In this document: piece by piece, positions 2,781-50,972 of the stretch | Layout: the number at the start of each line of letters is the position of its first letter | Position numbering within the stretch: position 1 is the stretch's first letter | DNA from: an uncultured delta proteobacterium | GTDB taxonomy: Bacteria > Desulfobacterota > Binatia > UBA9968 | DNA length: 64,000 nt | Direction: 5' to 3' | Assembly: GCA_963771465.1 (NCBI GenBank) | Contig: CAVYTU010000017.1 | Coordinates: 992,001-1,056,000, forward strand | Program-made: the position numbers and the translations under genes | The notes under the pieces: generated by a model | What the model was told of the DNA's origin: nothing | The model's database searches: none | Seen by the model: only the letters and a program-made list of their open reading frames with translations

Positions 2781-4570
2781 CTCTCGAGCATATCCGAAAT
2801 TTTTCCATCATCGCCCACATCGATCATGGCAAGTCGACATTGGCGGACCGGCTCCTGGAATTCACCGGCGCGGTGAGCGCGCGGGAAAAGACCGACCAGA
2901 TTCTCGACAGCATGGATCTCGAACGAGAGCGTGGAATTACCATCAAGGCGAGTCCGGTGTGTCTGCGCTACAAGGCCAAGGACGGCAAAGTATATAAGCT
3001 CAACTTGATCGACACGCCGGGCCACGTCGATTTCACCTACGAAGTTTCGCGCAGCTTAGCGGCGTGTGAAGGCGCTTTGTTAGTCGTCGACGCCGCCCAG
3101 GGCGTTGAAGCGCAGACCGTCGCCAACGTCCATATGGCGTTGGATCACAATTTAGAAATTCTCCCGGTCATCAACAAGATCGATTTGCCGAGCGCGGAGC
3201 CCGAACGGGTGAGAATGGAGATTGAAGACGTCATCGGCATCGATGCCTCCTACGCGATTCCCGCGAGTGCTAAAGAAGGCGTCGGCACGGAAGAAATTCT
3301 CGAAGGCATCATCCACCATTTTCCACCGCCCAAGGGCGACCCCGCCGGGCCGCTGCGCGCACTGATCATCGACAGTTGGTTCGATCCCTATCACGGCGCG
3401 GTGGTCATGCTCAGACTATTCGACGGCACGATGCAAAAGGGCACCAAGATTCGCATGATGTCGAGCGGGTTGGTGTTCGAAGTTCTGCGTCTGGGTGTCA
3501 ACTCTCCCGTGCCGGTGGAGGTTTCTGAGCTTCGGGCCGGCGAAGTCGGCTTTGTCATGGCCGGCATCAAGGAAGTCGGCGAGACCCAAATCGGCGACAC
3601 GATGACCACCGACGATCGGCCGGCGAGCGAGCCGCTGCCAGGTTTCAAGCCGATGAAGCCGATGGTCTTTAGCGGACTTTATCCAACCGATTCCGGCCAG
3701 TACCAGGCGCTGCGCGAAGCGTTGGAAAAACTCCGCCTCAACGATTCGTCGTTTACTTTCGACCCCGAGACATCGCAGGCACTCGGCTTTGGGTTCCGCT
3801 GCGGCTTTTTGGGTCTGCTGCACCTGGATATCATCCGCGAGCGGCTGGAGCGGGAGTTTTCGCTCAGCCTAATCACGACCGCGGCGACGGTTATTTATCG
3901 CGTCATAACGGTTACCGGTGAGACGTTGACGATCGATAATCCGGTGAAGCTCCCCAACGAAGGCGAGATCGAGCGCATCGAAGAGCCGGTGATCCAAGCG
4001 ACTTTGCACCTGCCGCAAGAATATCTCGGCTCGGTTTTGACACTTTGCCAGGAAAAAAGAGGCACGCAGAAAGAAATCAAATATCTCGGTCCGAAGCGCG
4101 CCCAGCTGATCTATGAATTGCCGCTCAACGAGATCGTCGCCGATTTTTATGATAAGCTTAAATCCGTCAGCCGCGGCTACGCTTCGATGGATTACGAGGC
4201 GATTGGCTACCGCGAGGCGGATCTGGTCAAGCTGGACGTGCGTATCAACGGCGAGATAGTCGATGCCATGTCGATGATCGTGCACCGAGAAAACGCTTAT
4301 TACCGCGGCCGCGAGTTGGTGCACACCATGCGCGGGTTGATCCCGCGGCAGATGTTCGAAGTGGTGATCCAAGCCGCCATCGGCAGCCGGATTATCTCGC
4401 GCGAGACGGTCAAAGCGTTACGCAAAGACGTGATCGCCAAATGTTACGGCGGTGATATCACCCGCAAGCGCAAACTGTTGGAACGTCAAAAAGAGGGTAA
4501 GAAACGCATGAAGCAAGTCGGCAAAGTGGAAATACCCCAGGAAGCGTTCCTAGCGGCGCTTAAAATTTAG
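2777..4570 (+). CDS. lepA: Translation elongation factor 4 (LepA)
   Basis: [29 protein letters not shown]-terminal [28 protein letters not shown]. Confidence 0.99.
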
Positions 4571-6444: not shown

Positions 6445-6450
6445 GTCAGA

Positions 6451-6801
6451 ATGAGCGCGGATAACGTCGAAGATCGCGAACAAGCCGCAAGCGAAACTCA
6501 GCCGGTGCCGAGCGCGAACCTCGCGTTAACACTGGTCGTGTTGTCCTGGTGCGCCTGGACGGTATTCCAAACCGTACAGTTCGTGCGCGAGCGTAATCAT
6601 CTGACTCAGCTCAGAGCCAACCAAGAAACGCCCATTCAAGAAGCAACCAAAGTTAGAGCGCAGATCGAGGCCATCACCGCCGACACCGTCAAGCTCGCCG
6701 CAGCGGGCAACGTCGGCGCCCAACGCATCGTCCTCGAATTGCAAAAGCGCGGCTTCAAGCTCCCCGCCAATGCGAAGCCCGCGGCGCCGACAAAAAAATA
6801 G
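6451..6801 (+). CDS. Small single-pass membrane protein, family B copy 2
   Basis: Shares FQT.....ER..L.....NQ....QEA.KV..Q and LA..G..GA..I...LQ..G with 5655-6068. Confidence 0.85.
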   Translation: MSADNVEDREQAASETQPVPSANLALTLVVLSWCAWTVFQTVQFVRERNHLTQLRANQETPIQEATKVRAQIEAITADTVKLAAAGNVGAQRIVLELQKRGFKLPANAKPAAPTKK

Positions 6802-32085: not shown

Positions 32086-32189
32086 GAAAAGTGCTGAGCA
32101 ATGAGCACTGAGTCCTGAGGTCTGAATTGAATTAATCCTAAGCTCCGGGTTTATTCTCAGCACTCAGGACTTCGCACTCAGCACTTTTC
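32086..32189. repeat. Inverted heptamer tandem-repeat hairpin (GTGCTGA-type), possible bidirectional terminator
   Basis: Perfect 13-bp terminal IR GAAAAGTGCTGAG/CTCAGCACTTTTC with 4-5 degenerate heptamers per arm; fills the gap between convergent stops. Confidence 0.8.
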
Positions 32190-39968: not shown

Positions 39969-41087
39969 TCAAAACTGCTCGAGCATCTCTTTTTGCAGCT
40001 GCTCGATCTCGCCACGCACGGAATTCACCCGATCGAGTGGGCGGCCCATACGCTCGGCTTTTTCCATGATCTGGTCTACTTTGTTCATGATGTTTCTCAG
40101 TTTGGTGTGATATTCGATCAGCGCGCGGGCGCGCTCGTCGCTAGTGCGCCCCGGTTTAAGCGCGGCCTCGCGAATCTCGCGCGACTCGTAGAGCAACTCG
40201 GTGATTTCTTCTTCGTAGCCGAGCAATAGCTCGCGGATCGTGCCCCGCACCTGCTCATGCTCAGCGGGATCGCGCCAAAGGACATGCTCAAGAAAGAAGA
40301 GATGCTTCTCGTAAACTTCAGCTTCGCCGTCGAGGTAGGCGTAGGCTTGCAGCAGCGCCAGCGATTGACGGTAGCGGCGATCCGAGGCGAGGATATTTTT
40401 CTTGTTTAGCTCGCGCCGAATATCAGCGATGCCGCGGTAGACATGGGACGGAATGGTGATTTGTCCGGCCTGGGATTGAAGCTCGGTGAGTTCCGCCAGC
40501 GTGAGCGTGGTTCGCTCCGCCGCCTTCTGCGACTCCAGCATACGGAGAAAACGGAAATCCTCGGCGATGTAACCGACCACGAATCTGACGAGAAAACGGT
40601 CGTAGAGCGCGGTTAGCTCTTCTTCTTCCGGGAGTTCATTGCTGGCGCCGAAAAGCGTCAGGAGCGGCACTTTGACAATCTCTTTGCCGTTGTGAAACAG
40701 CCGTTCGTTGATCAAGGTGAGAATCGAATTCAAGATCGACGAGTTCGCTTTGAAAATCTCATCCAGAAAGGCGATATGCGCTTCCGGCAGTTTACGGTCG
40801 GTCACGCGGCGGTAGTCGTCCTGCTCCAATGCCTTCAGACTCACCGCCCCGAAAATCTCTTCCGGCGTGGTGAAACGCGTCAGCAGCCATTGAAAATAAT
40901 TCGCCCCCTCGATACGCCGGCACAGCTCGTCGGCGAGCATCGACTTGGCTGTGCCCGGCGGGCCGATGATCAACAAATGATGCGACGCCAGCAGCGCGGC
41001 GAGGGCACCGTCGATTAAGTCGGCGCGCTCTAAAAACGTTTGTTTAAGCTCGTCGCGAATCTTTTTCAGTTTTTCTTGGGCAGTCAT
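39969..41087 (-). CDS. MoxR-family AAA+ ATPase, RavA-like
   Basis: GPPGTAKS, LLTRFTTPEEIFG, FLDEIFKANSSILN, GASNELP, ALYDRF, SDRR. Confidence 0.93.
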   Translation of the reverse strand: MTAQEKLKKIRDELKQTFLERADLIDGALAALLASHHLLIIGPPGTAKSMLADELCRRIEGANYFQWLLTRFTTPEEIFGAVSLKALEQDDYRRVTDRKLPEAHIAFLDEIFKANSSILNSILTLINERLFHNGKEIVKVPLLTLFGASNELPEEEELTALYDRFLVRFVVGYIAEDFRFLRMLESQKAAERTTLTLAELTELQSQAGQITIPSHVYRGIADIRRELNKKNILASDRRYRQSLALLQAYAYLDGEAEVYEKHLFFLEHVLWRDPAEHEQVRGTIRELLLGYEEEITELLYESREIREAALKPGRTSDERARALIEYHTKLRNIMNKVDQIMEKAERMGRPLDRVNSVRGEIEQLQKEMLEQF

Positions 41088-41197
41088 GGGTAACAATTTT
41101 CTTCAGATTAACAAAGGAATAGTACAGAAACAATCAATAGACATTCCGCGGGCTTTTGGATATTGAGGATGTACTACTGCGGCAGGAGGTCGGTTCG

Positions 41198-42217: not shown

Positions 42218-42226
42218 TGGGTTAGT

Positions 42227-42266
42227 CGTTCAAAACGTTCAAGCCGTTCAAATAGTTGAAATCGTT
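42227..42266 (+). repeat. Nonamer tandem repeat (CGTTCAANN), single arm
   Basis: CGTTCAAAA CGTTCAAGC CGTTCAAAT AGTTGAAAT CGTT. Confidence 0.8.
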
Positions 42267-42292
42267 TTCACGGTTTATAGTGGAGGATTCTC

Positions 42293-43872
42293 GTGGTTGA
42301 TGGCGAATGGGACGTGATCCTGATCGGCGCGGGGCAAAATAATTTTGCTCTCGGCACTTACCTCGGCAAAGCCGGCTTGAAGACGGTGATTTGCGAGAGT
42401 CGGCTCGAGAACGGTGGACGGCTCGCCAGCGAAGAGATCACTCGGCCCGGTTACTGGCACAACACGCTCGCCTACTTCCAAGACAATCGCGAAGTGTCGC
42501 CGCCTTGGCGCGAGCTCGATTGGGACAACGGCCATCACGCTGAGTTCATTTCGCCGCCGGTGATCAGCTCGTTATTGCTTTCCGATGGCAGCTCGGTGTC
42601 GCAGCATCAGTCGCTGGAGCAGACGGTCACTTCGATCAAGAAAATCTCCACTCGAGATGGCGAAGCTTGGCGCGAAACTCACCATCGCTATTACCAACTG
42701 ATCCGCGATTATCTGATTCCCTACTATTACCAGGCGCCTCAAAGCGGCAAGACAATTTTGCAAAAGCTCGATTTCGCACCGGCGGGTAGAGAGTTCATAC
42801 GCCTTTGGCACATGACGCCGCGCCAAGTGGTGGATGAGCTGTTCGAGGCCGATGCGGTGAAGACGTTGGTACTTTCCCAGATGGCCATTCCGCGCGGCGT
42901 AGGCGTTGATTACGCCGGTGGTGGCATCGAAGTCTTAAAGATGATCGCCGGCGATGAAAGACCCGAGCTGGCGCGCGGCGGCGTCCCATTCCATCGCGCA
43001 AGTGTTGCAGCGCGCCTACGTTCACAACGGCGGGCAGATTCGCGCCGTGCATCACGTTGAAAAAATTTTCGTCAATGACGACGGACGCGCCGTGGGCGTG
43101 CGGTTACGCGACGGCCGCGAGTGGCAAGCGCGCTTGGCGGTGGTTTCCAATAGCGATCCTTATTCCACTTTCGTTGAAATGGTTGGCGAGGATTATCTGC
43201 CGCGGACGTTTGTCGAACGGGTTAAAGACATCCAGGTCGATGAGTTTTCATATTTCCAAGTTCACGTCGCTTTGAAAGCGCCGGTGCGTTACGCGCTTCA
43301 CGAAGCGAACGATCCGTCCGTCGGTCAGGCGATGAACGTGAACATCGGACCCGAGAAGCCATCGGATATTGACGAGCATGTGGCAAGAGATTCGCGCTGG
43401 TGAGTTTCCGGAGCATGCTTGTCTGCATGCGATATGTCCGACCGCGTTCGATCCATTGCAGGCGCCGCGCGGCAAACACGCCGCGTCGGTGTTCATGCCG
43501 GTGCCGTTTCAATTGAAGGGCAAAAAGCCGGAGGATTGGGTCAAGCTCAAGAACGGTTTCATGGACAGCGTTTTGAAAATCTGGCGCCGCTGCGCGACCA
43601 ATCTCACCGATGAGAACATCGAAATGAAAGTAGCCATGGAGCCGCACTATATGTCCGGCCGCTGGCCCAACATGCGCCGCGGTTCGGTCTGGGTGGCGCG
43701 CAAAATTCCGACGCAGATGGGTGAGCAGCGGCCGATCGAACAAATCTCCGACTACCGCACGCCGATCGCGGGACTTTATCAAGTCGGCGCGGCGATGCAT
43801 CCAGCCGATGCGGTCATCGCGGGCTCGGGGTATAACTGCTGGCGGGCGATGAAAGAGGATTTGAAACTTTAG
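42293..43872 (+). CDS. Phytoene desaturase-like FAD oxidoreductase 1; frameshifts near 42983 and 43377
   Basis: DVILIGAG, ARGG/SHSIA junction, VVSN, DPLQAPRGKH, YRTPIAGLY; three ORF-track pieces join into one collinear protein. Confidence 0.85.
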
Positions 43873-43879
43873 TAATCTC

Positions 43880-43973
43880 TGAAACGTTTCGAACGGCTTG
43901 AACGATTGCCACGATTTGAACCACGCCGTCCTTCAAGTCGTTCAAATAGTTCAAAACGTTCAGGCCGTTTCGG
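43880..43973. repeat. Inverted nonamer tandem-repeat hairpin (TTGAACG/CGTTCAA)
   Basis: About five 9-nt units per arm in opposite orientation between the two oxidoreductase genes. Confidence 0.8.
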
Positions 43974-43983
43974 ACCGGATGTT

Positions 43984-45607
43984 ATGGCGAAAATTTTGGA
44001 ATACGACGGCGTTGTCATCGGCGCGGGGCATAACGGCATGATTTGCGCCGGCTATCTGGCCAAGTGCGGCCAGAAGATCATGGTCGTCGAGAAAAATATG
44101 GAAGTCGGCGGCGGGCTCGATTCCCACGAAGACCGCAACTATGCCGGCTTTTGGCATAACATTCATTCCGTATTCCACCGCGGCTTGATGATGCTGCCGT
44201 GGTACAGGGATCTCGAGCTGGAGAACTTCGGCATTCATTACTATCGCCCCGATCCCGGCGTGGTGCATCACTTTATCGACAAGACGTATCTTGGCTGGTT
44301 TTCCGACGTGAAGAAAACCGTCGAGACCATCGAGCGCTTTTCGAAAAAAGACGCCGCGTCCTTCATGGACATCTGGACGCGCTGGCAGCCGGTGGTGCAG
44401 AAAATTGTTTTCACCGAAACCTACGCCGTGCCGCTAGCGTTCGAAGAAAAGAAACCGCTGTTGGAAAAGACGATCGAAGGCCGAGAGTATCTGAAGTATT
44501 TCGACACCACGCCGGAGGAGTTTGTTCTCAAACACTTTGAGCATCCGCGCGTGCGCGCGTTTATCGGCTTCCTTGGCGTGATGCGCGGCTATGAGCTCGA
44601 TGCGCCGCAGACCGGCTACCTGATTCCCGCGATGATCGCCTGGGGCGTCAATCCGCAACTGTGCCGCGGCACGTCGCATGCGTTGGGAGACAATCTGGCG
44701 CACATGATGTCGCATAATCACGTCGACTACATCGAGGCCAATGGCGTCGAACGAATTCTGGTGGAGAAAGGGCAGGCGACCGCGGTCGTATTGGAAGACG
44801 GCACGGTGATCAAGGCGCGCAAGTTCATCGCGTCGAACGTGAATCCGGTCGAAACATTCATCAAGCTGGTGGGGCGAGAAAATTTGGACAAGAAGTTCGC
44901 CGATCTGGCGGACGGATTTCGTTTTTCCAAGACGACGCCAATCTTCGCGACCAATTTAGCTCTAAACGAACGGCCCAAGTACATCACTGAAGAAAAATAT
45001 CCCGAAGTCGCAGCTTCGTTCATGCACATCGTCGGCCTGGATGACTACGAAGACTTGCAAAACCTATTCGAAGATTGCCGCACCGGGCAACTGCCGCGCA
45101 AGCCCTTCATGAACGGCGCGACGCCGTCGTTTCACGATCCGACCCAGGCGCCGCCGGGTAAAGCGACGGCGTTTATGTGGCAATTGATGACGTACAATCT
45201 GTGGGGCAATCCCTTGAACTGGGACAAAGCGCGCGACGATTGGTTTAAAAAGCAACTGGCGGTTTGGCAAAAGTTCGCGCCGAACTTGGACGAGGCTAAT
45301 ATTCTCTCGACCGATTCAACGACGCCGCTCGATATCGAACGTCACGACAAGAATATGTACTGCGGCGACTGGATGGTCGGTGAGTACTCCGGCGATCAAG
45401 CGCTGGAGAACCGGCCGTTCCCCGGTTGGGGACAATATCAGAACGCCCATCGACGGGCTATTCATGTGCGGATCGTCGTGTCATCCCGGCGGCAATATCA
45501 CCGGCGCTCCCGGTTACAACGCGGCGAAAGTGATCGCTGAGTCGCTTGGACTCAAGACGTGGTGGAATCCAGTAGACTTTCGCGAACATCTGAAGGGACT
45601 GAGATGA
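43984..45607 (+). CDS. Phytoene desaturase-like FAD oxidoreductase 2; frameshift at 45439
   Basis: VIGAGHNG, DPTQAPPGK, TPLDIE; Y/RTPIDGLFMCGSSCHPGG continues in the +1 frame. Confidence 0.87.
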
Positions 45608-45615
45608 AGACTAGT

Positions 45616-45694
45616 TGGAATATTGGAGTAATGGAGTGGTGGAGTGATGGGTCCGGTACCCAATACCCCAGTACTCCAACACTCCATCACTCCA
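45616..45694. repeat. Inverted octamer tandem-repeat hairpin (TGGAGTNN/NNACTCCA)
   Basis: tggaatat tggagtaa tggagtgg tggagtga tggg - short loop - cccaatac cccagtac tccaacac tccatcac tcca. Confidence 0.85.
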
Positions 45695-45704
45695 GGGGGC
45701 GGTT

Positions 45705-46449
45705 ATGAGATTGGCTGATCGAGTTGCCATCGTCACCGGCGGCGCGCGCCATATCGGCGCGGCGTATTGCCGACGCTTAGCCGAAGAAGGCGCCGCGGTG
45801 GTCATCGCCGATATACTCGACGGTGAGCCGGTGGCGCAGGAGATTCGGGCGAAAGGTGGCAAAGCGTTGGCGCTCAAAGATCGATGTGTCGAATGAAGAC
45901 GACACAAACCGCATGGCTGCCGAAGCGGTGAAAGCATTCGGCCGGATCGATATCCTCGTCAACAACGCGGCGATCTTCATCAACATCCAACGCCATCCGT
46001 TTTATGAAATCACTGGCGAGGAGTGGGACAAGGTCTCCGCCGTGAATATCAAAGGCCCGTTTCTCTGCGCCAAAGCGGTCTTCCCGCAGATGAAAGAGCA
46101 GAAGAGCGGCAAGATTATCAACATCTCGTCGTCGACCGCGTACTGGGGCACGCCCAACTTTCTCCACTACGTGGCGTCGAAAGCCGCACTTATCGGGATG
46201 ACCCGGTCATTGGCGCGTGAAGTCGGCGCGTACGGCATTTGCGTCAACGCAATCGCACCGGGTTTAGTCGAACACGAAGGGCAGAACGCTCCCAAGGCGC
46301 TCACGGAATTGCAGCTCAAAGAGAGATCCATCAAGCGGCTGCAAACGCCTCAAGATTTAATGGGCACGCTCGTGTTTCTATGTTCGTCTGACAGCGATTT
46401 CATGACGGGGCAATCGATTGTGGTGGATGGCGGAAGTATTTTTCATTGA
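45705..46449 (+). CDS. SDR family oxidoreductase; frameshift near 45878
   Basis: VTGGARHIG in the first frame; DVS, NNAA, YVASK, VNAIAPG, VDGG in the +1 frame. Confidence 0.88.
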
Positions 46450-46641
46450 CTATGTCATGGTTTCACATGCCGAACAGTCGCCTGTTCCGCGACGTAAAGA
46501 TTGAGATACAGGCGCGCCTTTGCTGGGAAGGGGAGATTGAGCGAGGGGCGACAGATGCTACTTGAGCAACTGCCTCATGCGATCGGTTGGTTTGACCCCA
46601 TGAAAGTTTGATAGAGGGAGCTTTAGGCGTGTTGGAAATAC

Positions 46642-46665
46642 GCACCGGCTCTTTCGAGCCGGTGC
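46642..46665. terminator. Perfect hairpin just downstream of the amidohydrolase stop
   Basis: GCACCGGCTC-TTTC-GAGCCGGTGC; weak U-tract on the minus strand. Confidence 0.6.
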
Positions 46666-46675
46666 TTCTGACCTC

Positions 46676-47759
46676 TTACTGCACCGGACTCGGCACCGGA
46701 ATGTTGTAAAGCTTGGCGACGTTTTCCCGCACGAGTTTTGCGCGCAACGGGGCGGGAAGATCCCCTAGATCTCGGGCGACGATCTTGACGAGAGTTGGGC
46801 CAGGTCGAGTTGCCATGTGGGAAGTCGTTGGACCACATGCAGTTGTCGGCGCCCCACCAGTTGAGGATATGGCCGCCGACGGCGTCGTTGAAGAAAGTGG
46901 TGTAGATCTGGTTGTGGAAGTATTCGCTCGGCAGTTTCTTGATCGCTAAGCCTTCGCGATTGGCGCCGTGGCGTTTGAAGTAGTAGTCCCACTGCTCCAA
47001 GACAAACGGAATCCAGCCGAGCTCGTTCTCCACTAGGACCACCTTTAGTTTTGGAAAGCGTTCCAACACGCCGGAATAGATCAACTCATAGAGGCTATCG
47101 ACCGACTGAAAGAGTTTCATGTTGACGCTATTGTGCTCCGAAGTCAGGCCGGTTGGGGTATCTTTGAGACCGACCGAACGGCTACGGCTGTAGCCATGGC
47201 CGCTCAAGATGTGCAGGTTCACCGACATGTCGAGGTCCTGAGAGGTGGCCCAGAACTTGTCATAGTGCGACGAGGAGAAAGGCAGTTCCGGCGGCGGCAC
47301 CTGCCAGATCACCGAGCCGCGCATGCCAGCCTTGCGGCAGCGCTCCAGCTCTTTCACGGCGCCGTCGATGTCGTACATCGATAACATCGAAATGCCGATC
47401 AGCCGGTCGGGCGCGGCGCTGCAGTAGTCGATCAGCCAATCGTTGTAAACTCGGCAGCAGGCCCCTTCCAACTCGTGATCGTCGAGGCTCAAGCACTTCA
47501 AACCGTGGGTCGGATAGAGCACTTCGGCGCTGACGCCGTCGGCGGCCATTTCGGCGACGCGCTTGTTCTTGTCCTGCGCACCACCGGGAGTGTCGTTGGG
47601 TCTTTGCCCGCCGAAGTCGGGAGCGCGGTCCTGAAAAGCTTTTGGCAGTTGTTTTTGCCACAGTCCTGCGGGCTCGATGACATGCGAGTCCGACGAGATG
47701 AGAACCTCATCGATGACAGTCTTTGACTCGCGCCCATAGGTTCGTTCGATAATGGCCAT
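46676..47759 (-). CDS. Amidohydrolase_2 family protein; frameshift near 46787
   Basis: ISSDSHVIEP, YNDWL, VNLH, ERFPKLKVVLVE, WSNDFPH; true C-terminus IVARDLG...RENVAKLYNI in the shifted frame ending at 46676. Confidence 0.88.
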
Positions 47760-47848
47760 GGTTCTGTTTCCTTTTTTGTGCAAATTTTCTGGCTGCTGTT
47801 TATCATTCAATACCTAGTCGCGGGGGCGGGCGCAAGAGGAAGTGGAAT

Positions 47849-48381
47849 AATGGAGAATGGAAAATTGAGAATGGATAATTTTCGGATGGAGATGCCGGGT
47901 TTTTCGCAAATGTTAGGTTGTTTAACTACGATTGTCACCATGGTACGAAGCCAGGAGGAATTCGAATTGAGAATTGAGAGTCGAAAAATGAAAGAGAATG
48001 TCGTCAAAGACAAATCTTTTGATTTCGCGCTGCGGGTAGTTAAGCTGGCGAAATTTCTTGAAGCAAGAAAAGGGAATTTGTTTTGTCTCGGCAAGTGCTT
48101 CGTAGTGGGACGGCGATCGGCGCGTTGGTCAGAGAGGCCGAGCACGCCGAGAGCAAAGCGGATTTCATTCACAAGATGAGCATCGCGCTGAAGGAAGCAA
48201 ACGAAACCTCGTACTGGTTGGAACTACTATACCAAGGCGAGTACATTGACAAAGAAAGCTTTCGAGTCGATCCGCTGCTGATAGCGAAGAGATCATCAAA
48301 TTATTGGTGGCGATCGTAAAAACTTCCAAAGTCTCAAAACGCTCCGAATAATTCTCCATTCTCAATTATCCATTATCCATT
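47849..48381. mobile_element. Putative cassette: 32-bp heptamer inverted repeats enclosing a four-helix-bundle gene
   Basis: 47849-47880 AATGGAGAATGGAAAATTGAGAATGGATAATT versus reverse complement of 48350-48381: 29 of 32 identical. Mobility is inferred, not shown. Confidence 0.6.
47988..48351 (+). CDS. Four helix bundle protein (23S rRNA-IVP/Avd-like family); indels near 48068 and 48262-48272
   Basis: MKENVVKDKSFDFALRVVKL / EFVLSRQVLRSGTAIGALVREAEHAESKADFIHKMSIALKEANETSYWLELL / EEIIKLLVAIVKT, a strong match to this family spread over three frames. Confidence 0.88.
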
Positions 48382-49827
48382 ATGCCAAAGTCGCTTCGTA
48401 CGTTTCTCGATGATATGCGCGGGGCATACCCGAGCGAGGTCGTGTCGATTTCCAAGACCGTCAATCCGCTCACTTATGATATTACTGCAATCGTCAAGCA
48501 GCTCGGCGCGCTGAAGAAATTTCCCGTACTGATCTTCGAGCATCCGCTCAATGCTCACGGCCAGGCTACCGACATGAAAGTGGTCATGAGCGCGGAGAAC
48601 TCGCAGAAAAAGATTCAAGTCGCTCTCGGCGTGCCGGCGGACATGGATCGCGCCGAGATGGCGCGCGAGTGCTTGCGCCGCGAGGCGAGCAAGATCGGGC
48701 CGATGATTGTCAGTAAAGACGCGGCGCCGGTGAAAGAGATTATCCGCACCGGCGATCAGGTCGATCTCTATGAGTTGCCGTTGCTCAAGCACCACGAGAT
48801 GGACGGCGGGCCTTATATCGATATGTCGAGCGTCGCCAAAGATCGCGCCAGCGGCGTTTACAATTGCTCGTATCATCGGATGGAAGTGAAAGACCGCAAT
48901 CACACCGGGTTTCTGATGAGCTTGCAACATACGTGGCGCGTCTTTCGCGGTTACGAAGAGGTCGGCGAGGAATGTCCCGTCGCGACCGTGATCGGCCATC
49001 ATCCGGCCTATCAAATGGGCGCGTGTTACGGCGGGCCGTTCGAGATCAGCGAATACGATATCATCGGCGGCTATATGCAGGAGCCGTTGCGCTTAACGCC
49101 TTCTGAAACATGGGGCGAGCGCTTGCTCGTGCCTGCGGACGCAGAGATCGTCATCGAAGGAGCCTTGCTGCCGGGAAAACGAATGGTCGAAGGACCATTC
49201 GGTGAAGTGAACGGTTATCTCGGCGTGCAAGGCTACCAGCAATCGGCGCACTACGAAGTGCGCGCGATCACCCGGCGGCGCGGCGCGCTGCACACGTCGA
49301 TCCTCACACCCGAAGGGGACAAGCCGTGGATGGACTTGGCGCGGGAAGGCGCGTATTTGCGGCGCGCGCGCGAGGCTGTGCCCAATGTGCTGGCGGTGTG
49401 CGCCAGCGGCCGTCATGCGCTGCTGAATGTTTTTATTTCGATGAAAAAAATGTCGGAAGGCGATCCCGGCCGCGCCGCCGCGGCGGTGCTGACGTGGGAC
49501 TGGTGCAAGAACGTTTTTGTCTTCGATGAAGACATTAACGTCTATGATCCGACCGAAATTCTCTGGGCCGTCGCCACCCGAGTGCAGCCGCACCTGCAAG
49601 TTTCGATCATCAAAGAAATCATGCGCGGCAGCTTGATCGATCCATCGATGGTCGACGCGCGCAAGACCTCGGCAATGATCGTCGACGCCACCAAACCGCT
49701 CGACCGGCCATTTTCGCCGGTGTCGAAGTGTCCCGACGAAGCGCTAGCGCGGATTCGCCTCGAAGACTTCGTGCCTGGCGAAGTGTTGCAGCATATTCCC
49801 ATCGACCGGACGACTTACTGGGCGTAA
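48382..49827 (+). CDS. UbiD-family (prFMN) decarboxylase 2
   Basis: DGGPYI, NCSYHR, PADAEIVIEG, EGPFGEVNGY, DEDINVYD, ILWAVATR, VDATKP. Confidence 0.93.
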   Translation: MPKSLRTFLDDMRGAYPSEVVSISKTVNPLTYDITAIVKQLGALKKFPVLIFEHPLNAHGQATDMKVVMSAENSQKKIQVALGVPADMDRAEMARECLRREASKIGPMIVSKDAAPVKEIIRTGDQVDLYELPLLKHHEMDGGPYIDMSSVAKDRASGVYNCSYHRMEVKDRNHTGFLMSLQHTWRVFRGYEEVGEECPVATVIGHHPAYQMGACYGGPFEISEYDIIGGYMQEPLRLTPSETWGERLLVPADAEIVIEGALLPGKRMVEGPFGEVNGYLGVQGYQQSAHYEVRAITRRRGALHTSILTPEGDKPWMDLAREGAYLRRAREAVPNVLAVCASGRHALLNVFISMKKMSEGDPGRAAAAVLTWDWCKNVFVFDEDINVYDPTEILWAVATRVQPHLQVSIIKEIMRGSLIDPSMVDARKTSAMIVDATKPLDRPFSPVSKCPDEALARIRLEDFVPGEVLQHIPIDRTTYWA

Positions 49828-49834
49828 ATATTTT

Positions 49835-49903
49835 GTTCAAGGTTCAAGAGTTCAATGTCGGATGGACTTCTATCGAGGTAATCATCCGATTGAACCGTGA
49901 ACT
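49835..49903. repeat. GTTCAA tandem-repeat hairpin
   Basis: GTTCAAG GTTCAAGA GTTCAATGTCGGATG ... CATCCGATTGAACCGTGAACT just after the ubiD stop. Confidence 0.65.
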
Positions 49904-49994: not shown

Positions 49995-50972
49995 ATGTCC
50001 GGAATCTTCATCAGCTATCGCCGCGAAGACAGCGCGCCTTACGCCGGACGGTTGTACGACCGATTGTGCGGGCGCTTCGGCGCGGATCAAGTTTTCATGG
50101 ACGTCGACGACATTCCACCGGGAGCGGATTTTGCCGCGCATATCGGCGCCAAAGTCGGCTCCTGCGAGGCGATGATCGTCGTCATTGGCCACGAATGGTT
50201 GACCGCGCGCAATGGCGATGGGCAACTGCGCTTGAGCGATCCGCAGGATTTTGTCGGCCTGGAGGTGGCGCTGGCGCTGCAGCGCGACGGCATGGTGATC
50301 CCGGTGCTCGTCGGCGGCGCAAGCATGCCCAAAGCGGCCGAGCTGCGCAGCGACTTAAAGGCGCTGGCCAAGCGCAACGCCGTAATCCTCAGCGATCATG
50401 AATTTCAACGCGATGTCGATTCATTAGTTAAAGCGCTGGAATTGATCCCTAGCCTCGGCAAGAAGCCGGTGAACGAGAGCAACGATTGGAAGGTCGAGAT
50501 GCGTCAGCGGCTGCGCCGGCGGCTGGTCTGGAAGCTGCCGCTGATCGTATCGTTGGTATCGTTTGCGATCTGGTGGCAGTGGCGGATTAACTCGGAGGTC
50601 ATAGTGCCCACACCACACGCAGGGATCGCGGCGAAAACGGCCGCGGCGGTCGCTGGCACTTGGAGCGGCGAAGTCACCTATCCGTGGGGCGCGAAATACA
50701 CCGAACAGTTTTTCTTTCAGCCGGAAGGCGACAGCCTTTTCGGCACGGCGATGTTTCTCCAGTCCAAGCGTGGCATCGAGAACGGCAAGGTTATCGGCGA
50801 TACGATTTCGTTCCAGGTGCGATTCGAAGAGGTGAACGACGGTACGACCAGGACCCGTTGGAACCGCTACGAAGGAAAACTTGCGGGCGCGGAAATTCGC
50901 TTGAAGATACTCGACGACAAAGGCAATCCGCCCGTGGAAATCGCCTTGACTAGGGCCCGAGCAACTCTCTAA
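49995..50972 (+). CDS. TIR-domain protein with one TM helix and C-terminal beta-rich domain
   Basis: IFISYRREDS, VFMDVDDIPPGADF, VIGHEW, DFVGLEVALAL, VIPVLV; hydrophobic LPLIVSLVSFAIWWQW. Confidence 0.9.
   Translation: MSGIFISYRREDSAPYAGRLYDRLCGRFGADQVFMDVDDIPPGADFAAHIGAKVGSCEAMIVVIGHEWLTARNGDGQLRLSDPQDFVGLEVALALQRDGMVIPVLVGGASMPKAAELRSDLKALAKRNAVILSDHEFQRDVDSLVKALELIPSLGKKPVNESNDWKVEMRQRLRRRLVWKLPLIVSLVSFAIWWQWRINSEVIVPTPHAGIAAKTAAAVAGTWSGEVTYPWGAKYTEQFFFQPEGDSLFGTAMFLQSKRGIENGKVIGDTISFQVRFEEVNDGTTRTRWNRYEGKLAGAEIRLKILDDKGNPPVEIALTRARATL

Follow-up and report, generated by a model that had tools for sequence, protein, structure and literature searches.

Why should a gene of the family encoded by the intervening sequences (IVSs) of 23S rRNA genes stand between an amidohydrolase gene and a ubiD gene, enclosed by two inverted rows of a seven-nucleotide repeat? 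The question is raised by a 64,000-nucleotide stretch of the genome of an uncultured delta proteobacterium (Desulfobacterota, Binatia; contig CAVYTU010000017.1, positions 992,001 to 1,056,000 of the forward strand), the whole of which is referred to below as the window. A four-helix-bundle protein gene and the repeat arms on its two sides form here a cassette of roughly 545 bp (47843-48387 in window coordinates). As a survey of homologous loci makes plain, heptamer arms of this kind are a family trait of these genes and not a local oddity. The cassette consists of the following parts:

47843-47880, plus strand: left (outer) arm, about 5.4 tandem heptamers of the sense unit A-A-T-K-G-A-N (TGGAATA ATGGAGA ATGGAAA ATTGAGA ATGGATA ATT)
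47881-47963, plus strand: spacer of 83 nt that splits the left array
47964-47979, plus strand: partial inner array of 2.3 GAATTGA units, with 8 nt between its end and the ATG
47988-48351, plus strand: four-helix-bundle protein gene (PF05635 23S_rRNA_IVP / TIGR02436), from the ATG at 47988 to the stop codon TAA at 48349-48351
48350-48387, plus strand: right arm, about 5 reverse-complement heptamers (AATTCTC CATTCTC AATTATC CATTATC CATT...)

To establish whether these arms belong to the gene, an alignment of 26 close homologues was used as the query in a scan of genome contigs, which confirmed 522 of 605 candidate stretches. The survey set comprises the best 80 of the 522 confirmed loci, which are 60-79% identical to the query and come from Desulfobacterota, Nitrospira, Bacteroidota, Cyanobacteriota, Chlorobiota, Leptospirae, Omnitrophota, Patescibacteria, and other phyla. 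By tblastn, the 80 loci hold 87 gene copies, with two or three copies in six of them. The score of a copy is that of its best ungapped inverted repeat with one arm in the 260 nt upstream of the start codon and the other in the 130 nt downstream of the stop codon; 84 of the 87 copies were testable, the flank being too short in locus L016 and no stop codon lying within the locus in L059 and L077. A check for inverted tandem arrays around homologues, as put forward in an earlier, sequence-only reading of the window, found them enriched: a score of at least 13 was reached by 53 of 84 homologous genes, compared with 1 of 237 random places of equal geometry and 3 of 139 long open reading frames (ORFs) away from cassettes. 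Moreover, for 57 of the 84 genes the observed score was not reached by any of 100 shuffles. The periodicity is equally specific. Of 85 genes, 68 have a period-7 array on one side or both, and 35 of these have one on both (controls, 11 of 237); none of the periods 4-6 and 8-12 occurs at more than 2 of 85 genes. Arms and gene thus form one inherited unit across many phyla.

When phase is disregarded, nearly all consensus units are rotations of A-R-T-K-G-A-N (AATTGAA, AATTGAG, AATGGAT, AATTGAT, AATGGAG, and AGTTGAC among them). Sense units make up the left array in 49 of 51 cases; of 53 right arrays, 47 carry the reverse complement. Arrays hold a median of 5.0 units on the left and 4.6 on the right (range, 2-28), the left one ending a median of 14 nt before the ATG and the right one beginning a median of 4 nt after the stop. 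A tblastn search of plasmids with P0001, an intact 120-aa relative of the window protein, returned 31 records, 16 of them from Nostoc. In all 13 distant plasmid copies examined (37-54% identity) the best period was 7 on both sides, with some low scores (6-8), and their units all differ: GTCGGAR, AATTCGT, CAGTGAG, ATTAGTG (15 copies), GAAAGNG, GATGAAG, ATTTTAG, GCAATTC, and others. The 7-nt period is therefore constant through the family, and the sequence of the unit varies between subfamilies. In particular, paralogues a few kb apart in one genome bear different units (L043, L080), which means that the unit tracks the cassette and not the host. The arms of one cassette also match each other better than arms taken from different loci do (0.63 vs 0.37). 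On the simplest reading, the feature that is kept is an array of the cassette's own unit, inverted, at each end. Individual plasmid copies depart from the common proportions. A Bernardetia plasmid (L088) has 15 units in one array, and the array on its opposite side is short and weak; a Treponema plasmid (L089) has very long, self-folding GAAAGNG arrays upstream of the gene.

The window cassette is a regular example of this design. Its arm pair (38 nt, 89% complementary, and 469 nt apart by the repeat finder) is the longest inverted repeat of the 64-kb window at separations of up to 700 nt. Tandem Repeats Finder assigned a period of 7 to the left arm (4.4 copies) and to the right arm (4.7 copies). 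With up to three mismatches allowed, a run of three AATGGAN units has four matches in the window, all within the two arms; the mean in shuffled sequence is 0.10, and none of 100 shuffles reaches four. The sequence-only reading had described the segments 47849-47880 and 48350-48381 as complementary at 29 of 32 positions, with a third partial arm before the ATG and a right arm starting inside the stop codon. All of this was borne out: the three mismatches all fall at position 7 of the heptamer, the partial arm is a period-7 array of 2.3 copies at 47964-47979, which itself pairs with 48353-48367 (15 nt, 93% complementary by the repeat finder), and the right arm runs from position 48350, within the TAA, into the first codons of ubiD. 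The cassette is poorer in G+C than its flanks (0.40-0.47 vs 0.52-0.64), and no intrinsic terminator was found within or 3' of it. Most homologues have no counterpart of the 83-nt spacer, and the inner partial array of the window occupies the usual position of the left array; by this comparison, the main left arm has been displaced by an 83-nt insert at 47881-47963. A nested repeat was ruled out as the source of the spacer, to which BLAST matched nothing in the rest of the window or in loci L001-L080. The spacer contains a minus-strand match to a promoter-like consensus (47938-47910), which faces the amidohydrolase gene.

The enclosed gene had been read as encoding a four-helix-bundle, IVS protein (IVP)-like product, and its matches to PF05635 (66.3 bits; cut-off 33.8) and to TIGR02436, 'four helix bundle protein' (69.7 bits; cut-off 24), agree with this, both being scored on a 65-aa middle piece only. 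PF05635 is the sole Pfam domain of the protein. A single open frame of about 115-125 aa is typical for the family; the window gene instead spans three frames, with shifts at 48062-48068 and 48262-48277. All 120 residues of P0001 can nevertheless be placed on it: the ATG at 47988 sets the frame of residues 1-26, and residues 27-92 lie in a second frame at 48065-48262 with 100% identity, and residues 97-120 in a third frame at 48277-48348. Assembly indels are a more probable cause of these breaks than decay, since the adjoining short-chain dehydrogenase/reductase (SDR) gene (45705-46449) is also out of frame, as is the end of the amidohydrolase gene. In particular, the SDR gene is frameshifted at about 45860-45890, and positions 1-54 and 54-185 of its profile are matched in different frames. 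When the DNA of the window is aligned with that of five related loci, the columns without variation coincide with codon positions 1 and 2, which indicates purifying selection on the protein.

A homologue search with the 65-aa piece yielded 7980 proteins at E<=1e-3 among 8000 candidates scored, and the best 120 are 115-150 aa long and 82-100% identical to the query piece. Many close homologues lie on contigs of just 500-2000 bp, as is expected if the repeat arms break short-read assemblies. The closest solved structure to P0001 is 2rld_A (E 3e-43), and PDB entry 2rld contains five chains. The homologue from Xanthomonas campestris is described as a homopentameric ring in a study of the Coxiella burnetii IVS (PMC4990558). 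The window protein, by homology, probably adopts the four-helix-bundle fold and assembles as a pentamer. The invariant polar residues of the family (R49, E50, H53, E55, D59, H62, K63, E70, N72, E73, Y76, and W77 in P0001 numbering) could mark a putative nucleic-acid-reading site.

If arms and gene are inherited together, in what surroundings do they live? Of 150 nearest ORFs of at least 90 aa, 136 share the strand of the cassette, and in 60 of 72 loci both flanking ORFs do; for comparison, 154 of 197 pairs of ordinary neighbouring ORFs from these loci are co-oriented. Gaps between cassettes and their neighbours have a median of about 40 nt, so that the arms fill the intercistronic space. In the 78 loci with a neighbour, type I restriction-modification genes (23 loci) and components of ABC transporters (13 loci) could be read from the neighbour annotations, along with hypF/hypD (3) and split hipA-like pairs (3), and with single cases between rpoB and rpoC (L031), araD and araA, and guaA and glmS. 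The rpoB-rpoC case is a metagenome-assembled genome (MAG) of the cyanobacterium Okeania, in which the cassette occupies 3963-4420 and an additional heptamer hairpin lies at 6446-6569. The split hipA-like pairs (L009, L030, and L047; about 3990-4350) belong to three unrelated Bacteroidota/Balneolaceae MAGs, each with the cassette between an ORF for the HipA N-terminal domain and one for the C-terminal kinase. On plasmid pNPUN01 of Nostoc punctiforme (L081, 1400-2010), a cassette with GTCGGAR arms and an annotated ORF of 152 aa, above the usual length, adjoins the excision-factor genes xisH/xisI and a Tn7-like tnsA. In L002, L010, and L003, a motif that the sequences before the left arm have in common proved to be the 3' end of the upstream specificity-subunit gene.

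Neither rRNA genes nor the enzymes of mobile DNA form part of this setting. No rRNA was found in the 18 of 80 loci scanned with Rfam, which include all six multi-copy loci; in the other 62 loci the neighbours are protein-coding. The window itself contains no rRNA or other Rfam family at the gathering threshold and no tRNA detected by ARAGORN, and Pfam revealed no reverse transcriptase (RT), transposase, or integrase among the 53 stop-to-stop ORFs (130 aa or longer) in the roughly 12 kb to each side of the cassette. The earlier statement that this locus has neither an rRNA gene nor an RT therefore stands at these scopes, and an rRNA context is rejected. Among 150 neighbouring ORFs of 78 loci, no recombinase, transposase, or RT recurs beside the cassettes; the only mobile-DNA genes near relatives are a PDDEXK_2 ORF on the opposite strand (L032), the TnsA gene of L081, and an Rpn-family gene (L094). 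A transposon was rejected on these grounds, and the description of the element as a compact, transposase-free cassette is supported. Phages were set aside as carriers, since only 2 of 50,697 records match.

Signs of movement come from comparisons of another kind. Spread across phyla at high identity and a G+C content below that of the surroundings are both signs of mobility. Among Nostoc plasmids, L082 and L085 carry a cassette with both AATTCGT arms, which is missing from the same context in L083 and L084, and the difference between carriers and non-carriers starts and stops at the outer ends of the arms. Five Nostoc plasmid records that lack the cassette in this context were covered at 73% in two pieces. 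The cassette-free version has about 200 bp with the start of a small ORF instead, so that this case is a replacement and not a clean empty site. Period-7 hairpins that enclose no ORF also occur away from cassettes, eight of them in 554 kb of loci, as counted by a strict scan that recovered one of the four gene-less hairpins of the window. Some of these hairpins are built of the unit of the cassette in the same locus, as at 2173-2234 in L001 and in L006, L017, and others. The four other intergenic, gene-less hairpins of the window consist of tandem 7-, 8-, and 9-nt units that differ from the cassette unit.

What, then, is the element? We lean, if only slightly, towards the view that it is a free-standing (non-rRNA) form of the ORF-bearing 23S rRNA IVS. 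A cassette without a dependable promoter of its own would be transcribed together with its host operon, and the arms would pair in the host transcript to give a duplex of about 30-38 bp with the ORF set apart in the loop. Such a duplex would be a substrate of RNase III, as in the rRNA case, and the insert would be excised from the host RNA; excision would limit harm to the host and set the output of the IVP. Each arm may also offer the IVP homopentamer a series of binding sites, about five units with one per subunit, and binding of the arrays by the IVP might act in autoregulation or help the element to spread. Binding sites are considered in addition to a stem because a stem alone requires neither heptamer periodicity nor subfamily-specific units. 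The constant 7-nt period, the unit that tracks the subfamily, and the mode of about five units would fit a pentameric ring that reads one unit per subunit.

Folding predictions are consistent with the RNA part of this proposal. The predicted RNA of 47830-48400 pairs the arms and is more stable than 100 of 100 shuffles (z = -5.5), with 34 of 38 arm positions paired arm to arm. Among related cassettes, at least 12 bp of arm-to-arm pairing are predicted in 46 of 54 with good arms and in 8 of 30 others. The earlier reading had a transcript that folds into a long stem with the ORF in the loop; the pairing of the arms holds as a prediction, and its suggestion that the protein may bind or propagate the arms is a hypothesis. 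For free-standing copies, formation of the RNA stem, cutting by RNase III, and binding of heptamers by the pentamer are inferred.

Several observations weigh against the proposed origin and mechanism. The arm score is below 13 in 31 of 84 genes, and 17 of 85 have no period-7 array at the threshold used. Some arrays are not inverted: L090 has direct arrays, both arrays of L011 are in reverse orientation, and those of L007 are swapped. (L090 is a Planktothrix plasmid, in which the units AATCCCC and AATCGTA stand in direct orientation on both sides.) No bias towards G-U pairs is seen where the two arms disagree: among 134 mismatches at 1518 positions of 53 arm pairs, 35 are G:T or T:G, which are tolerated in the sense RNA, 34 are A:C or C:A, and 65 are of other types. 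They are located at the degenerate unit positions 2, 4, and 7. Complementarity hardly changes when the units of the right arm are put in random order (observed mean 18.3 vs 17.8 after permutation; 2 of 32 loci with p<=0.05), in a test that is weak where arrays are nearly uniform. Pairing thus stems from both arms being arrays of one unit family and not from positional compensation. Neither the wobble count nor the permutation gives a signal of RNA-specific selection on the stem, and both results fit binding-site arrays or a symmetry at the DNA level as well as they fit an RNA stem. The agreement of about five units with a pentamer is numerology and only suggestive, given the range of 2-28 units per array. 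Moreover, the upstream neighbour in the window is divergent, and the cassette is therefore not riding an upstream operon here; a promoter-like match, TGGAGA-17-GATAAT, lies within its left arm. It has also been judged by the authors of the Coxiella study that the ORF of that IVS is probably not expressed (PMC4990558).

A role of the arms in DNA would fit the absence of both an RNA-type wobble bias and positional compensation between them. The arms would then be rows of subterminal binding sites or single-strand hairpins that join the cassette ends for excision and insertion, with the protein as end binder and a host enzyme as the cutter. Rows of repeats or hairpins of this sort have counterparts in the repetitive extragenic palindromic (REP) sequences around genes for REP-associated tyrosine transposases (RAYTs), in integron attC sites, and in the subterminal repeats of some transposons. 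The boundaries of the Nostoc difference at the outer arm ends point the same way, as do the same-unit, ORF-less hairpins scattered nearby, which recall the REP doublets (REPINs) around RAYT genes, the cassette-specific rather than host-specific units of the L043 and L080 paralogues, and the spread across phyla at 60-79% identity. However, the protein has no nuclease or recombinase domain, and no gene for one recurs alongside; the strong agreement with the direction of host transcription points to RNA, as does the RNase III cut demonstrated experimentally in the rRNA version (PMC4990558). The Nostoc case, too, is a replacement of about 200 bp, in which no target-site duplication was seen and none was searched for. 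Taken together, a role in DNA seems to us unlikely.

A different reading would make the arrays a general intergenic signal for a host factor, such as a nucleoid protein, a global regulator, or RNA polymerase, with the four-helix-bundle gene as a frequent passenger. The four gene-less hairpins of the window would suit it, and so would Geobacter, for which 24+21+8 pairs of this kind are described in PMC2700814, for instance between proB and proA. An (AATTGAN)n array also sets TTGANA and GANAAT 17 nt apart in phase, and the promoter-like match in the left arm of the window speaks for this reading too. This likeness to phased -35/-10 promoters is possible for AATTGAN and not general: it fails for GTCGGAR, AATTCGT, and GAAAGNG, the units of other subfamilies being unrelated. 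Since the period of 7 is bound to one gene family in phyla with very different host factors, since paralogues in one genome differ in their units, and since arms match best within their own locus, a host signal is decidedly improbable. Still less can be said for a non-autonomous retroelement, in which an excised stem-loop RNA and an Avd-like protein would be copied by an RT supplied in trans and reinserted. The protein is homologous to Avd, an RT-binding accessory protein of diversity-generating retroelements (DGRs) (PMC10053308), and the stem would bring the 3' end beside the 5' end; but no RT occurs within about 12 kb on each side in the window or among the 150 neighbouring ORFs of 78 loci, and no pair of template and variable repeats was seen in the 1.2 kb inspected (47500-48700 only). 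We regard this alternative as very improbable. That the arms arose by chance or as an artefact of assembly would gain some plausibility from the indels of this assembly, but it is refuted by the shuffles, none of 100 reaching the observed count, by the controls, and by the fact that finished plasmids and independent assemblies of many phyla repeat the design; its probability is negligible.

The preferred reading makes the cassette a free-standing relative of the rRNA IVS. The earlier statement that the family is tied both to 23S rRNA IVSs and to Avd is confirmed in print (PMC4990558, PMC10053308). The 23S rRNA IVSs of Leptospira, Coxiella, and others likewise encode a PF05635/S23p protein; their terminal inverted repeats form a stem whose loop holds the ORF, and tandem heptamers lie 5' of the ORF within the stem, as described for Coxiella (PMC4990558). 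In Coxiella burnetii, the 23S IVS has a terminal stem of 28 bp that RNase III cleaves in vitro, and the mapped ends fall mid-stem, where the first of the 2-3 tandem GACAGAT heptamers upstream of the ORF begins (PMC4990558). The same study has the element transcribed as part of the host transcript and lower in G+C than its surroundings (about 36% vs 42.5%), a trait that the window cassette shares. The window copy differs in standing between protein-coding genes and not in an rRNA gene, and in its unit, which is AATKGAN and not the GACAGAT given for Coxiella. It thus resembles an ORF-bearing rRNA IVS but lacks residence in an rRNA gene, by which IVSs are defined. An IVS with heptameric repeats in its stem is already known for one 23S rRNA case.

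Other known systems are matched less closely. With Avd of DGRs the cassette shares a homologous four-helix-bundle protein with pentameric relatives (PMC10053308 and PMC4990558), but the window has no RT among the 53 ORFs and no long direct repeat in 47500-48700, and a DGR was rejected for want of an RT within about 12 kb on either side. The relation of Avd to the PF05635 family is itself set out in PMC10053308. As in REP/REPIN-RAYT systems, a single gene is flanked by inverted copies of short repeats, and gene-less doublets lie between genes; unlike a RAYT, the window protein has only PF05635 and no HUH (Y1) transposase domain. RAYTs are HUH transposases, and REPs are single palindromes rather than tandem heptamer arrays. 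We know of no report of Avd genes with heptamer arms. Unlike an insertion sequence, the cassette has no transposase; it has inverted ends as a miniature inverted-repeat transposable element does, but the Nostoc comparison shows a replacement, and duplications were not searched for. It differs from an integron cassette in having no integrase within about 12 kb on each side and two arms instead of one attC. Cyanobacteria carry heptamer repeats known as short tandemly repeated repetitive (STRR) sequences, which are short intergenic tandem arrays, and the Nostoc plasmid cassettes are flanked by heptamers of a similar kind. Intergenic arrays of 3-5 short units (7-9 nt) that form inverted pairs, sometimes between the cistrons of an operon, are described for Geobacter metallireducens in the available part of PMC2700814. 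In that part, unlike here, the pairs have no enclosed gene or link to PF05635 and are read as regulator sites.

In the literature searched, outside of which most subscription journals lie, no account was found in which heptamer arms generally accompany free-standing PF05635 genes. Within the same literature, and as far as its available parts go, heptameric repeats are mentioned for the Coxiella IVS alone, and the paired repeats of Geobacter without a link to a PF05635 gene.

The immediate neighbours of the window cassette are two genes that frame it:

46623-47810, minus strand: Amidohydro_2 gene, divergent from the cassette, its C-terminal end passing into another frame
48382-49827, plus strand: UbiD-family decarboxylase gene, its ATG directly 3' of the last heptamer

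The position of the ubiD ATG places the translation start of this gene within the predicted stem. A relative on a 144-kb contig has a read-through protein (P0011) that continues across the right arm into ubiD, so that the junction of cassette and ubiD is common to the window and one relative. In the window, the cassette heads the ubiD unit and is not inside an operon. The region is ordinary chromosome, with genes for acyl-CoA dehydrogenases, a solute-binding protein, and an amidase as well as mutS and glnD. Directly after ubiD lies a gene for a TIR-domain protein (49995-50972; TIR_2, E 1e-12) with a long C-terminal extension that has no known family. A MoxR ATPase of the type found in the MoxR-vWA-beta-propeller ternary system (bpMoxR, E 3e-60) is encoded on the minus strand at 39972-41102. 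Apparent frame changes occur near the 3' ends of the amidohydrolase gene (46623-47810) and of the gene for an FAD-type oxidoreductase (43906-45607).

Further repeat structures of the window use units of their own. At 32086-32189, a gene-less hairpin has 34-nt arms (76% complementary) around a 36-nt loop, and its heptamers CTGAGNN / NNCTCAG resemble the MTYCTGA class of Geobacter metallireducens. Between the genes for the FAD-type oxidoreductase and the SDR, both on the plus strand, a gene-less hairpin at 45616-45694 is built of the 8-nt units TGGAGTNN, with 28-nt arms (86% complementary) and a 15-nt loop; the six-frame ORFs across it are repeat peptides. A direct array of the 9-nt unit CGTTCAANN (42226-42266) precedes the ORFs at 42281-43869, and an inverted pair of CGTTCAANN units follows them (43883-43969; 33-nt arms, 79% complementary, 12-nt loop). 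The far arm of this pair is complementary to 42226-42266, so that a 1.6-kb oxidoreductase-like gene is likewise bracketed. Right after the ubiD stop, a small hairpin of GTTCAAN heptamers (49835-49900) has a polarity opposite to that of the cassette arms.

One proposal reaches beyond the single locus: the pentamer would read its own heptamer arrays at 7 nt per subunit and, together with the ORF-less hairpins, would constitute a system that propagates itself and is neither transposon nor intron, with a logic like that of REPIN/RAYT. It would explain the origin of ORF-bearing rRNA IVSs, cyanobacterial heptamer repeats, and the paired 'regulator sites' of Geobacter in common terms. We offer it tentatively and consider it rather doubtful. 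The window instance itself is an ordinary member of a very large and poorly understood class, and it is the pattern at the level of the class that deserves attention. For annotation, the arms account for many of the spurious repeat-peptide ORFs and contig breaks found around these genes. The host operons that carry the element include those for type I restriction-modification, ABC transporters, and, in one cyanobacterium, rpoB-rpoC, and processing would split such transcripts. The function of the proteins encoded by rRNA IVSs has been a puzzle since the early 1990s, and such proteins are now annotated by the thousand outside rRNA as 'four helix bundle protein'. If heptamer arms define these genes, as the survey indicates, the PF05635 family would become a definable genetic element, and these findings point to a cassette that is widespread across bacterial phyla and still unexplained.

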